The translations under genes and the position numbers were made by a program. This document shows positions 8,901 through 29,239 of a stretch of DNA of 64,000 nt, piece by piece. The stretch is from the NCBI RefSeq assembly GCF_056746865.1, contig NZ_CM163382.1; one strand, 5' to 3'. The first letter of the stretch is position 1, and every line of letters begins with the position of its first letter. The notes beneath the pieces were generated by a model. That model did not search any database, was not told where the DNA came from, and saw nothing but the letters and a program-made list of their open reading frames with translations.

Positions 8901-11192
8901 TTACCCTTCACGTTCCACAACTTTAATTTCCACCATGCCGATCCCGAGCTTACGCGGCGAGTGTCCGAGGATATTCCCTTCGTTGGTTGAGACAGGTTCC
9001 GGCGGCACAATTACCAGTGTGTCGGCATCGGTTGGGTTATCGAAATGCAGTGTGGTGGTGGTCACTTCATTGCCCAGCACAAGAGTTTGTTCTTCATTGC
9101 CTACGCGTACCGGAATAGGACGGCTGGCGTTATTGCCGTATGCTTTGGCGGTAATCACCAGGTCAAATTTCTTCGGCAGCGGATGCTTGTACTCGATTTT
9201 TACTTCATCGCCCAGCTGCGCGTTGGACCAGCGGCCCCACGACTCTGGACGGGAAATCCCACTAAACTGTTTCACCTCTTCTGGCGCACCGGCGACGTTG
9301 AAGATGAAACTGTCGGCTTTGTAGCGAATATCGTTATCAACAATTTTCAGCGTATCGACATTGCCTTTATAACGCGCCATGTCGATGACCGTATCTTTAA
9401 ATGCCGTTTTGCCCTTCCATGTTGTTTTATCAACATGCTGGACAATTTGCTGACCGCCAAGCTGCCCTTGCGAGACACACCAGTCGGTGGAAAGTGCCAG
9501 TTCCGGAGCCCAGAGTTGTGCCATCTTATAGCAACGGTCAACCCAGACGAAATTGTCGCGTGGAGCGAAATCGGCCAGCTGGAAACGCAGCGGTGCTGAG
9601 TATTCACTTTCCGGCAGCGGTTCTACGCGCTTGTCTGAAACCCGCAACAGCAGCGGCAAACGGAAATGGCTACCCGAGAAGGCAATCATGTTTTTCTGCT
9701 GGTCGATGGTGAACTCTTTCATCTCTTTAGGGAATTTCCACAGGCGGATGATATCCGGCTTCCACGCCAATGTTTTCTCTTTGATATTGAGGAAGATTTC
9801 CGACATCGACTGCCCGGATAAACTGCTACGACCAAGTCCGAGATAGTTATCGCCACCGAGAATGTCCAGCACCGTCGCGCCGTTATCCATCGTGTTACGC
9901 TTCACTGCCAGCGTCTCTTGCTGCGGCTTGTCGCCACGGATGACAAAAAACAGGTTATTGCGATCCTGTTTATTAAGGTATTTCCACGCCGTGTTGTTCA
10001 TCGCTAAATGGTCAGAAGAGACGACGATGACGGTATCTTTAAACCACGGTGACGCTTTGATTTTGTTGATAAACGTCGCGATATTCTCCTGGCTGCAACT
10101 TACCGCGCTGAATGACTGATTCGGCTTACCGTCAAAATCATATTTTTTGCGGTTACAGGTACGCGAGATAAAACCATCCGGGTGATGGGTATCGACTGTC
10201 AGGGTAAACAGTGAGAATCGCTGACCTGAGCGGGAAAGCTCTTCAAACTTTTTCCACGCTTCATCGAGAACGGTATCGTCGTAGAATCCCCAGTCGTTGC
10301 GATAGTGCGGGTCGGCTACCACGCTTTTCAGCTCTTCTGAGCCGTATAAGTGGTCGAAGCCATGCGACTTCAGGAACACATCTTTACCGGCAAAACGCAG
10401 ATTCGCGCCCTGCACGAAATAGTTCTGATAACCCGAGTTTTTCAGGATATCGCCCAGACAGATGTTCTGCGGGAAGAAGCTGGAAACAGAAGCGGAGGCG
10501 TTACCTTCAAATGGGGCAAAAAGCGGAATGCCGCACTGAGAAGCCACCATACCCGCAATCGTGTAATCCGTTCCCGGCAGCTGCTGCGTGTGGCTGAAAT
10601 CCAGGCCTTCATTTTTCAACGCGCCCAGTTCAGGCGTGAGATCCGGGAAAGCTTCGTTATCAAAATAGGTCCGCTCGAGACTTTCGCCGTAGATATAAAC
10701 CAGGTTGAGTTTCGGGTCAGGGATAGTTTTCGACGGCTCTTTATAATAAGCCGCAAAGTCCGGGTCGCCGTCGCGTGACTGGGACTTCACCAGTTCCGTT
10801 ATCTGACGAAATGCCGGGCTGGCATCCACTGAACCCAACGCCAGTAAGAGTGCCAGCAGGCTGTAACCAAAATGGTGCGGATGATGACGACGACGGCGCA
10901 GGATCCAGCCCAGCGCACCGAACACCGCCGTCAGCCCCAGCACAATGCCGATACCCGGAAGAATGTATTTGCTGACACCAGCACCGGTCAGGCTGTTGGT
11001 TAAGGTATAGAGAACCGCGTCGTTAATACCATCACCAGTAAAATAGTCGCTGGCAAACAGGGTGATATTTAAAACGACAAATAGCCCCAGCACCGTTAAC
11101 GTGGCTGCAAACCACCAGGTGTTACGTCCCGCTTTCCATGCGTAAATCAGCACAGAGGCGAGAAAAAGGGCGAAAGAGAGTAGTTCTGACAA
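8901..11192 (-). CDS. opgB: phosphoglycerol transferase I (osmoregulated periplasmic glucan biosynthesis)
   Basis: 763-aa ORF with N-terminal TM segments and sulfatase-like domain; matches OpgB/MdoB. Confidence 0.9.
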
Positions 11193-25346: not shown

Positions 25347-26640
<1,294 letters not shown>

Positions 26641-27504
26641 TCACAAATATAGCGCCGGAAATATTAACCGGCTCACCCCGCGCACCTTTAACGCATCAGC
26701 CAATGGCTCAACGTCTTCCGGCGTGGCACTCGGCCAGCTTTGCGCCTCGCCATACACGCCGTGGGCATGAAACGCGTTCAGGCGTACCGGAACATCGCCA
26801 AGTCCCTTGATAAACGCCGCCAGCTCATCGATGTGTTGCAAATAATCCACCTGGCCTGGGATTACCAGCAAACGCAGTTCCGCCAGCTTGCCGCGCTCGG
26901 CAAGCAAACAGATGCTGCGCTTAATCTGCTGATTATCGCGTCCGGTTAATTGCTGATGACATTCGCTCCCCCACGCTTTGAGATCGAGCATTGCGCCGTC
27001 GCACACCGGGAGTAATTTTTCCCAGCCGGTTTCGCTCAACATACCGTTACTGTCCACCAGACAGGTGAGATGGCACAGTTGCGGATCGTTTTTGATGGCA
27101 GTAAACAACGCCACCACAAACGGCAGCTGGGTCGTGGCTTCGCCGCCGCTTACCGTTATCCCTTCAATAAACAGCACCGCTTTGCGGATATGGCTAAGCA
27201 CCTCGTCCACGCTCATGGATTGCGCCATCGGCGTGGCATGTTGTGGACACATCTTCAGGCAGGTATCACATTGCTCGCAAACCACAGCGTTCCACACCAC
27301 TTTGCCGTTAACAATCTGCAACGCCTGATGCGGACACTGCGGCACGCACTCTCCGCAGTCATTGCAGCGTCCCATCGTCCACGGATTGTGACAGTTTTTG
27401 CAGCGCAGATTGCAGCCCTGCAAAAACAGAGCCAGACGACTGCCTGGCCCGTCAACGCAGGAGAAGGGGATAATCTTACTGACTAAAGCGCATCTGCTGT
27501 TCAT
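26641..27504 (-). CDS. yjjW: glycyl-radical enzyme activating enzyme (radical SAM plus two ferredoxin-like 4Fe-4S motifs)
   Basis: 287-aa [11 protein letters not shown] radical-SAM cluster motif, plus [12 protein letters not shown] and [12 protein letters not shown]. Confidence 0.88.
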
Positions 27505-29026
27505 GGCTTATCACGCGCGGCTGGCGTTCCAGAATACGAGTGTTGCGTGCGGCTTCTTCTCCCAGCCAGGTGGTGTTGGTGCGTGAACCTTCGGCGCGAT
27601 ATTTTTCTAAATCCGACAAACGCACCATATAACCGGTAACGCGAACCAGATCGTTACCGCTGACATTGGCGGTAAATTCACGCATTCCGGCTTTAAAGGC
27701 ACCGAGGCAAAGCTGTACCAGTGCCTGCGGGTTACGTTTGATGGTTTCGTCGAGCGTCAGAATGTCGCTGATGCCGGAATAATAATAAGCATGATGCGGG
27801 GCGACAGTTTGCAGATGAGTAATCGGATCTGGCTCATCACCATACGGCAAACGCGCGCCCGGCGTGGTGCCGATATCAGAACTGATCCCCGACTGTGCGT
27901 GTAACATGGCGCGTTTTTGCCAGCCATATTTCACGGGGGTATTGGCGACAAACTCCGCCAGTTGTGCGCTGATGCGATAACCCACTTCATTTGCGGCGGC
28001 TTCTTTACCGTAGCGCGCGGCAATCCCATCTTTCTCGCACAGCAAGTTAACTGCTTCCGCCAGCCCATACATGCCAAACATTGGCACAAAACGTTCAGGG
28101 TTAATCAGCCCTTCTTTCACCAGGAAGCTATTCTCAAAGAAGTGTGATTGTTGATAGAGGAATTCACACCGCGCATCGATGATGGCGATCTGCTGCTGGC
28201 AGTAGTGCGGTAGAGTGCGCGTAAAGAAGTCATCCAGCGATTCACTGCGCTCGGCAATGGCTTTCAGGTTAAGGCGTACCAGCGTGCTGCCACCACCCGC
28301 CAGCGGCAGTGAGTTGTAACAGCTCACAATCCCGTAGCCCCCTTTTGTGAAAATTTTATCATGCACCGGACCGTTGGCGATGTGCGGTTTGCTACATTCG
28401 CAGATGTTTTTCGCCACTTCCAGCAGCAGATCATCAGGGGTGATTTCAGGATCGTAGATAAAGGTCAGGTTCGGTGAAACCTGCTTCAGCTCTGCATCTG
28501 CACGTAAGATTGCACGGGTGATGGGCGAATCAGACGGGCCGATATTGGCGTGCATAAAGGCGTCTGGCAGGGTTCTGTCGAGGTAACGCCAGAAACGTTT
28601 TATTCGAATATCGATCTCGTCCTGTGTTAGAATTCTAACATACGGCTGCAACAACGCATCCAGTTGCCCCAGGTAGACCGGCATCGATGTGACCGATGGT
28701 ACGTGGTGGTAAAGAATGGTCAGCAGAGAGAGTGCATCATCAAGATCTTTCGCGCCTTCCAGCTCCAGCCATTCGGAACCGTTCGCCAGAAAACGGGCGT
28801 AATCGGGTAAGACATAGCGCGGTTTGTACGGCGCATGACCTTCAAACATATCGCAGATTACACCCTCATCCAGCGCGCGGCGGGCTTCGGCAGGAAGCTG
28901 CGGATAAGGCAGATTGTTTTCTGCTTCCAGCGCCAGAAAATGGCGCTTCTGCTCCGGGCTAAGTACCGGGCTGGTGACAATTTGCTGGCAACGTTGTTGC
29001 AGTGCAATTTCATGAGAAGTGGGCAT
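27476..29026 (-). CDS. yjjI: glycyl radical enzyme-like protein YjjI (DUF3029), substrate unknown
   Basis: 516-aa ORF; C-terminal RVTGY resembles the glycyl radical RVSGY motif; 29-bp overlap with yjjW. Confidence 0.85.
28625..28640. promoter_or_regulatory. DeoR operator (perfect palindrome TGTTAGAATTCTAACA), deo O1-like, located inside the yjjI coding sequence
   Basis: Perfect 16-bp palindrome read from sequence; 599 bp upstream of the second site, matching the known O1-O2 spacing. Confidence 0.75.
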
Positions 29027-29223
29027 CTTCTTTTCCTTTTATGCCGAAGGTGATGCGCCATTGTAAGAAGTTTCGTGATGTTCACTTTGATCCTGATGCG
29101 TTTGCCACCACTGACGCATTCATTTGAAAGTGAATTATTTGAACCAGATCGCATTACAGTGATGCAAACTTGTAAGTAGATTTCCTTAATTGTGATGTAT
29201 ATCGAAGTGTGTTGCGGAGTAGA

Positions 29224-29239
29224 TGTTAGAATACTAACA
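29224..29239. promoter_or_regulatory. DeoR operator (TGTTAGAATACTAACA), deo O2-like, about 45 bp upstream of deoC start
   Basis: 15/16 palindrome read from sequence. Confidence 0.75.

Follow-up and report, generated by a model that had tools for sequence, protein, structure and literature searches.

The genes yjjI and yjjW of Escherichia coli almost certainly encode a genuine glycyl-radical enzyme (GRE) and its activase, and we propose, with a probability of about 0.6, that this functional enzyme and its dedicated activase take part in anaerobic nucleoside catabolism. The pair was studied in a stretch of 64,000 nucleotides of contig NZ_CM163382.1 (NCBI RefSeq assembly GCF_056746865.1), hereafter called the window, and coordinates refer to this window unless they follow a lineage number. 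Both genes lie on the minus strand. The open reading frame (ORF) of yjjI (27476..29026) encodes a protein of 516 aa that corresponds to a minimal GRE barrel, and that of yjjW (26641..27504) a radical S-adenosylmethionine (SAM) activase of 287 aa. The stop of yjjI and the start of yjjW overlap by 29 nt (27476..27504, minus strand), so that translational coupling is likely. The outer coordinates of the pair, the length of YjjI and the overlap agree exactly with those given in an earlier reading of the same DNA that was based on the letters and their ORFs (the sequence-only reading). In other lineages, the junction varies from overlaps of 1 to ~29 nt up to gaps of a few nucleotides.

The pair itself is not new. 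RefSeq/PGAP names the two coding sequences (CDS) 'YjjI family glycine radical enzyme' and 'YjjW family glycine radical enzyme activase', and the families have long been catalogued as PF11230 and TIGR04040/TIGR04041, the latter two being NCBIfam models of the type 'hypoth_equivalog', i.e. without an attached function. The sequence-only reading had called the pair a functional unknown. This holds insofar as the full-text literature, with most subscription journals outside its coverage, yielded expression and regulon data and two context-based guesses, but no biochemistry and no published biochemical assignment for YjjI; on the other hand, the pair is a catalogued known unknown with a family name. 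Its core-genome status was borne out, as the 2386-bp yjjI-yjjW stretch is found at at least 80% coverage in 5422 of 5426 complete E. coli genomes. Outside E. coli and its relatives, the pair occurs in Actinomycetota, on one archaeal-looking contig and in many uncultured anaerobes. YjjI is ~90% identical to its Salmonella counterpart and 29-57% identical to those of distant phyla, with invariant catalytic residues.

YjjI scored 731.7 bits on PF11230 (cut-off 23) and 787 bits on TIGR04040 (cut-off 498.3). When the PDB was searched with the single YjjI sequence, no relative was found among the solved structures (best E 0.9), and the GRE assignment was therefore tested by fold. The family is small, since an exhaustive search of 1.84 billion representative proteins returned 538 clusters at E <=0.001, many of them fragments. 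An AlphaFold2 model of YjjI built from a 62-sequence alignment had a mean per-residue confidence (pLDDT) of 92.1 and a predicted TM-score (pTM) of 0.91. With this model, Foldseek placed class III ribonucleotide reductases (RNRs) at the top of the PDB matches (E 6.8e-18, query TM 0.76), with enzymes of the pyruvate formate-lyase (PFL) type close behind; ~437-454 of the 516 residues were aligned in these matches. The modelled fold matches every solved GRE and contains the ten-stranded alpha/beta barrel of the RNR/PFL type. As modelled, YjjI consists of little more than the barrel itself, and it is about as far from one of the two known GRE branches as from the other.

Both catalytic loops were found in this barrel. 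A YjjI family profile run against the PDB sequences reached PFL (E 3.8e-4), YbiW (6e-4) and P. copri NrdD (2.4e-3). In the profile alignment, S235-C236 of YjjI fall on C418-C419 of PFL, within the PFL segment YAIACCVSPMIVGK, and C236 corresponds to C419. Likewise, the YjjI segment 'lvRvtGYlvkrsdl' falls on 'tiRVSGYAVRFNSL' of PFL, with G465 at the position of G734. The catalytic roles of C419 and G734 in PFL are established. The thiyl (Cys) finger loop of YjjI is thus formed by codons S235-C236-Y237-N238 (28313..28324, minus strand) and the glycyl-radical loop by codons R462-V-T-G465-Y466 (27629..27643, minus strand), which align to the RVSGY of PFL. In the model, the two loops form the tips of beta-hairpins (E231-234/E238-241 for the Cys loop, E460-462/E467-469 for the Gly loop).

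Across 26 YjjI sequences, down to 29% identity, the columns G83, G120, D123, L174, C236, E305, G418, R462 and G465 are invariant, and C236 is the only invariant cysteine. The motifs R-[VI]-[TS]-G-Y and S-C-[YF]-N are each kept in all 168 full-length homologs. The sequence-only reading had noticed the RVTGY at residues 462-466 and had suggested structure prediction and an active-site comparison; these returned the GRE fold, with the glycyl-radical and catalytic Cys residues both present and aligned to G734 and C419 of PFL.

YjjW has the features of a GRE activase. It scored 398.2 bits on TIGR04041 (cut-off 250.2), followed by the HypD-, PflC/E-, PflA- and CutD-type GRE activases with 103-141 bits, each below its own cut-off. 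The radical-SAM [4Fe-4S] motif C31-x3-C35-x2-C38 (CNLRCKNC, residues 31-38; 27391..27414, minus strand) is covered by the Pfam families Radical_SAM and Fer4_12. A ferredoxin-like insert with two CX2CX2CX3C motifs (C47-C57 and C76-C86; 27247..27366, minus strand) matches Fer4, Fer4_7 and Fer4_9. Both the motif and the two Cys clusters had been seen in the sequence-only reading. YjjW combines its CX3CX2C motif with an N-terminal glycine-rich segment of the DGPGxR type, a combination that is typical of enzymes of the PFL-activating enzyme (PFL-AE) type. In the neighbourhood census described below, 34 of 36 lineages have an activase gene next to yjjI, mostly on its downstream side and either slightly overlapping it or separated by a short gap. 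Of these 34 lineages, 23 have the ferredoxin-like insert and 11 lack it. Short YjjW homologs of 236-277 aa lack both CX2CX2CX3C motifs (e.g. L140 8608-9318 and L087 9557-10309), and the auxiliary-cluster insert is therefore optional within a single activase family.

The similarity to class III RNRs raises the idea that YjjI is a cryptic second anaerobic RNR, a stripped-down NrdD. The best structural matches of the model are NrdDs, and the first half of the barrel shares the motifs EPPK and R-I-D-E-x-L-x-P-F-V with NrdD. Moreover, hhalign aligned YjjI with E. coli NrdD over 404 columns (E 6e-5), a local hmmsearch also aligned the two, and some distant YjjI members have weak NRDD Pfam matches. 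In the hhalign alignment to a single NrdD, the Cys loops were a few residues out of register, and residue equivalence was taken from the PFL alignment. However, the second catalytic (reducing) cysteine of NrdD, Cys175, has no counterpart in YjjI: N174-C175 of NrdD fall in a 2-residue gap between Y71 and V72 of YjjI (PRY..ILPDY versus PMFNCMLIDL). The C-terminal Cys4 cluster of NrdD, a zinc site formed by Cys 644, 647, 662 and 665, is missing as well, as YjjI has no cysteine after residue 440. Lacking both, YjjI is probably not a reductase.

Further differences point in the same direction. NrdD has 712 aa and YjjI 516 aa; a Pfam scan detected no ATP-cone in YjjI, and E. coli YjjI gave no match to PF13597 (NRDD) at E <=0.01, whereas a true NrdD from the metagenomic lineage L171 scored 657 bits on the NRDD model. 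The Cys loop reads S-C-Y-N in YjjI and M-G-C-R-S in NrdD, and the Gly loop RVTGY and RVCGY, respectively. NrdD is served by NrdG, whereas YjjW is a PFL-AE-type enzyme with a ferredoxin-like insert and reached only 47.7-63 bits on the NrdG models (cut-offs 126-131), as against 122-141 bits on models of PFL-AE-type activases. Finally, YjjI coexists with true NrdD-NrdG systems: E. coli carries a separate nrdDG, and on the L171 contig a true NrdD with its own activase lies a few genes upstream of YjjI. A cryptic RNR is therefore very unlikely, and the idea was rejected. On the same contig, the NrdD (with an ATP-cone remnant) and NrdG genes at L171 114-2733 lie on the strand of the Bmp-ABC-YjjI-YjjW genes, and a flavin mononucleotide (FMN) riboswitch (112 bits; L171 17037-17161) is found ~5.5 kb downstream, before an unrelated small gene.

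YjjI is also distinct from the PFL-like GREs. No match to the PFL-like or Gly_radical Pfam families (PF02901, PF01228) was obtained at E <=0.01, the only match being PF11230, and YjjI lacks the 250-350 residues of peripheral helices that are found in PFL-like enzymes. These comparators include the sugar-phosphate dehydratases PflD and YbiW, formerly orphans, which are bound to 1,5-anhydrohexitol 6-phosphates in PDB entries released in 2024, and the eliminases, i.e. glycerol and propanediol dehydratases, CutC and HypD. The Cys-loop motif is a C-C pair in PFL and G-C-x-E in eliminases, and the S-C-Y-N of YjjI is neither of these. YjjI also has an invariant polar set of its own, including D123, E305, H376 and Q378 together with H159, K213, N218, N238, R251, D384 and R392. 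YjjI is thus a GRE outside both characterised branches, and the family forms a separate minimal (~500 aa) third GRE branch beside the PFL-like enzymes and the class III RNRs.

We then turned to the genes that surround yjjI. The census comprised 170 loci with a YjjI homolog, which were grouped into 36 lineages (denoted by L numbers) at 70% YjjI identity. Loci were taken from GTDB genomes, from exact-protein look-ups of distant representatives and from a metagenome scan. The scan of GTDB genomes covered the 80 closest loci, nearly all of them from Enterobacterales and therefore of little independent context, and for this reason the metagenome scan was seeded on distant family members. All 3382 flanking ORFs within 8 kb were clustered all-against-all, and the clusters were ranked by the number of lineages and identified with Pfam. 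Enrichment of nucleoside genes was judged by rank order, by the decay with distance and by general knowledge of how rare Bmp operons are.

In total, 24 neighbour clusters were seen in at least 3 lineages, and 17 of these make up the ranking that follows. Behind the activase, the Bmp/PnrA-like substrate-binding protein, a tandem ABC ATPase and BPD_transp_2 permeases ranked highest (10 of 36 lineages each), followed by a further ABC ATPase (7/36), PfkB kinases (6/36), and DeoD-type phosphorylases and LacI regulators (5/36 each). IU_nuc_hydro and DeoB were found in 4/36 lineages each, and PyNP, DeoC and cytidine deaminase (Cdd) in 3/36 each. The remaining clusters included two antisense shadow ORFs (9 and 6 lineages), a two-component sensor and a regulator (4 lineages each), and HhH-GPD proteins, a DEAD-box helicase, an MCP chemoreceptor and a RuvA-RuvB-QueA-SpoIID block (3 lineages each). 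Bmp proteins serve nucleoside ABC transporters as their binding components (PMC7093131, PMC13325309). In 16 of 17 cases, yjjI and the Bmp gene point in the same direction, and the median distance is 416 bp. Among the 32 lineages that had 4 kb or more of context, 16 have at least one nucleoside-type neighbour, 10 a Bmp gene and 12 a catabolic enzyme. The closest-member distances of nucleoside neighbours decayed with 25, 20, 12 and 5 cases per 2-kb bin, and the nucleoside-linked lineages were spread over both halves of a neighbour-joining tree.

Several loci illustrate this link. In the metagenomic lineage L140, the tightly packed genes yjjI-yjjW-cdd-pdp-deoC-deoB-deoD are divergent from a Bmp ABC operon, which is preceded by a purine riboswitch (56.7 bits). 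Its junction reads GAUUAC, which we take to be an adenine-type variant. It was the one relevant match in riboswitch scans of 17 distant loci, and none was found directly upstream of yjjI. In L095, the order is IU_nuc_hydro-ADP_ribosyl_GH-PfkB-PNP-AlkP-yjjI-yjjW-MFS-Bmp, and in L171 the Bmp-ABC-permease genes run into yjjI. In Gilliamella, yjjI comes after a run of seven nucleoside genes that share its strand (PNP-NupG-ADA-5'NT-Cdd-PyNP-5'NT-yjjI-yjjW). The deo link is thus recurrent in gene neighbourhoods across the YjjI family, beyond the physical overlap in E. coli described below. An earlier context network had also placed YjjI in a deoxyribonucleoside-degradation module (PMC2672614).

A number of points weigh against a role in nucleoside catabolism. 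No nucleoside neighbour was found in 16 of the 32 lineages with context, among them the actinobacterial L087 and the archaeal L002, and the census had no matched random-gene control. The deo adjacencies of Enterobacteriaceae and Gilliamella may share ancestry; in Proteus, the neighbours of yjjI are smp and serB, presumably the genes that lie beyond deo on the E. coli map. PfkB and the ABC components are large families, and Bmp-type systems may carry ligands other than nucleosides. The expression of yjjI clusters with that of nitrate/nitrite respiration genes (PMC3228777, PMC6643234), as would be expected of any target of FNR. Radical formation, the substrate class and the reaction type are what we infer for the YjjI family, and the reaction type is derived from fold similarity and a missing cysteine only.

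The pair could then be a genuine GRE system with a substrate unrelated to nucleosides, and the neighbourhood would reflect shared regulation, inherited synteny or a Bmp-type importer of some other small polar compound. In line with this, L090 has an MFS transporter and a glycerophosphodiester phosphodiesterase after yjjI-yjjW, an SDR/epimerase lies beside the pair in L087 and L091, and M20 amidohydrolases occur in 2 lineages. However, although the clusters were ranked without bias, nucleoside uptake or catabolism accounts for 10 of the 16 that occur in at least 3 lineages and are neither activases nor shadow ORFs. Strictly nucleoside-specific families (IU_nuc_hydro, PyNP, Cdd, DeoB and DeoC) are among them, the genes are co-directional and tightly packed in L140, L095 and L171, and the signal is scattered over the tree. 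We therefore regard a substrate outside nucleoside metabolism as possible but rather unlikely, and a nucleoside, or its pentose or pentose phosphate, as the probable, though by no means certain, substrate of YjjI in a nucleoside or pentose pathway.

Two further observations were made in the census. ADP-ribosylglycohydrolase-family proteins recur beside yjjI together with a nucleoside hydrolase and PfkB (L095 1187-2206, L154 10472-12568, L167 7802-9835 and L091 7449-7874), and some of them have ~680-700 aa, about twice the length of the Pfam domain. We assume that this set resembles the uncharacterised yegTUV-type trio of E. coli, and it may define the real YjjI substrate. In L002 (JGI 3300037598), the YjjI-activase pair (8001-10364) lies on a 172-kb contig with archaeal-looking neighbours (eIF-1A, eIF-2 beta, NMD3, RIO kinase and KH proteins) and no nucleoside genes nearby; the family therefore crosses domains.

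In E. coli, the link to nucleoside catabolism is also physical, as yjjI is interleaved with the control region of the deo genes. A perfect palindrome, TGTTAGAATTCTAACA, which matches the DeoR operator O1 with 0 mismatches, lies inside yjjI (28625..28640), where it coincides with codons V130-R131-I132-L133-T134; none of 100 shuffles reached the 6 matches observed. An O_E-like DeoR site, TGTGAAAATTTTATCA, also lies inside yjjI (28346..28361); with 12 of 16 matches it is a weak match and was placed by its position. The operator O2 at deoP2, TGTTAGAATACTAACA, was found by sequence match in the intergenic region between yjjI and deoC (29224..29239). O1 and O2 are 599 bp apart and the O_E-like site and O1 279 bp, which we take to be the classical deo O1-O2 and O_E-O1 distances. 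The yjjI-deoC spacer of 257 bp contains O2 and the CRP site of deoP2. Chromatin immunoprecipitation sequencing of CRP in enterotoxigenic E. coli located a site in this spacer (TGTGATGTATATCGAA, at 29191-29206 of the window) and a second peak inside yjjI (PMC4287617), which may belong to deoP1.

As O1, which marks deoP1, lies inside yjjI, transcription from deoP1 is antisense to yjjI; it runs over the first ~400 nt or so of the gene and then crosses the yjjI promoter. This promoter is located between O1 and O2, beside the deoP2 CRP site. The sequence-only reading had described the pair as sitting back-to-back with the deo regulatory region; the closeness is real, but the wording falls short, since the deo control region overlaps yjjI, with O1 and the O_E-like site inside the CDS. 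The residues 'RIL' over O1 are kept in the aligned Enterobacteriaceae (E. coli, Salmonella and Enterobacter), whose yjjI abuts deo. Edwardsiella and Proteus have GIL or GKL instead, and in Proteus yjjI is not beside deo. From the alignment, a dual coding and regulatory constraint on the O1 segment is suggested. The deoCABD operon, controlled by DeoR, CytR and CRP, is thus tied to yjjI by physical overlap in E. coli, and in the unrelated lineages L140 and L169 yjjI shares an operon with deo-type genes. The deo genes and yjjI differ in that no deo enzyme is a radical enzyme, and in that yjjI additionally needs FNR and anaerobiosis.

As ~680 bp of the 5' coding region of yjjI carry deoP1, O1 and the O_E-like site, the gene might be seen as a decaying relic that is kept only because its DNA doubles as the deo control region. 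However, an intact ORF of 516 codons is present in 5422 of 5426 genomes, and the protein has been seen by proteomics (PMC6561319). Its conservation towards Salmonella and distant phyla, with invariant catalytic residues, extends to taxa in which adjacency to deo is absent. Conservation effectively refutes this relic reading, and it was rejected.

Anaerobic control of yjjI has been reported: direct binding of FNR was seen as a ChIP peak (from chromatin immunoprecipitation), and yjjI is activated under anaerobic conditions in an FNR-dependent manner (PMC3688515). In Yersinia intermedia, anaerobiosis induced yjjI 4.3-fold and yjjW 2.1-fold (PMC3792023). In an upstream alignment of 10 genera, two elements are conserved in the yjjI-proximal part of the spacer. 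The first is the promoter-proximal half, GGATCAA (29087-29093), of a candidate FNR site, CGCATcaggATCAA in the reading of the yjjI strand (29087..29100, minus strand), and this half is invariant. The second is the candidate -10 hexamer TACAAT (29060..29065, minus strand), with TA.A.T conserved in 10 of 10 genera. The hexamer lies 21 nt downstream of the ATCAA half-site, a spacing that fits a class II FNR promoter. With an offset of 1,977 bp, the K-12 FNR peak at 4,615,181 of an older genome version would map ~93 bp before the ATG of yjjI. The yjjI site was missed when full FNR sites were searched for with <=2 mismatches, as only one of its half-sites is good. A consensus promoter scan gave no sigma-70 match for yjjI; none is expected because the promoter is activator-dependent.

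Another proposal, made from a narG bicluster, is that YjjI acts in nitrate, nitrite or nitrogen-oxide metabolism. In this multi-species bicluster, which has FNR/NarL-like motifs, yjjI is co-expressed with nar, nir and nrf genes (PMC3228777). Data on the HU regulon also place it with nrf genes (PMC2634741), and the transcriptome of a ptsA mutant places it with respiration genes (PMC6643234). Shared FNR control explains this co-expression, however, and no nitrate, nitrite or NO gene is among the recurrent neighbour clusters of the 36 lineages. Moreover, to our knowledge no GRE acts on inorganic nitrogen species. A function in nitrogen metabolism is thus highly improbable, and this idea was likewise rejected.

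The mechanism that we propose builds on the fold, both catalytic loops, the pairing with an activase, the published binding and activation by FNR, and the neighbourhood statistics. Under anaerobiosis, FNR would activate the class II-type promoter upstream of yjjI, and YjjW would be made by coupled translation. The [4Fe-4S] cluster at the CX3CX2C motif of YjjW would cleave S-adenosylmethionine to a 5'-deoxyadenosyl radical, which would take a hydrogen from G465 of YjjI. With every turnover, G465 would pass the radical to C236, C236 would abstract a hydrogen from the substrate, and the radical would finally go back. We consider a nucleoside, or a pentose or pentose phosphate set free from one, the most likely substrate, which would place the pair in anaerobic nucleoside catabolism.

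As a best guess, the chemistry would start with an RNR-like abstraction of hydrogen, after which a vicinal hydroxyl would be eliminated in a dehydration or lyase step. No net reduction is envisaged because YjjI, although its barrel and thiyl loop are RNR-like, offers no equivalent of Cys175. That the elimination takes place specifically on the ribosyl moiety is doubtful. Still less likely is that YjjI represents a third functional GRE class with RNR-type chemistry on free nucleosides or pentose phosphates instead of nucleotides, for example removal of the ribosyl 2-hydroxyl to feed DeoB/DeoC.

Two observations concern the surroundings of the pair and its database entries. The gap between yjjV and yjjW contains five tandem copies of a ~100-bp unit (26117-26637; 62-97% identity to the reference copy), probably an array of the repetitive extragenic palindrome (REP) or bacterial interspersed mosaic element (BIME) type. 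It measures 518 bp in this strain and 419 bp in K-12, which suggests one extra ~100-bp unit here. An NCBI protein of 574 aa from a 2.9-kb contig (P0004) matches 91% of the YjjI query at 100% identity and contains a DeoC/LacD aldolase domain (PF01791). Because deoC is divergent from yjjI, this fusion is probably an artefact of assembly or gene calling.

YjjI-YjjW appears to be one of the few glycyl-radical systems of E. coli that are still without an assigned reaction. What is added here is a specific, testable substrate class, and the finding that the coding and promoter DNA of yjjI is interleaved with the deo control region. The locus carries unusually dense overlapping information, as the CDS and the FNR promoter of yjjI run through a stretch that also contains deoP1 and three DeoR operators. 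The nucleoside link narrows an open-ended unknown to a short list of substrates and mutants. If YjjI indeed performs RNR-like chemistry on nucleosides or pentoses, it would form a bridge between the two known GRE branches and give gut bacteria a new anaerobic way of using carbon derived from nucleic acids. If the 2-hydroxyl is removed, ribonucleoside carbon would enter DeoB/DeoC and be split anaerobically from C5 to C3 + C2, i.e. to glyceraldehyde-3-phosphate and acetaldehyde. This would constitute a previously unrecognised branch of nucleoside fermentation in E. coli and many anaerobes.

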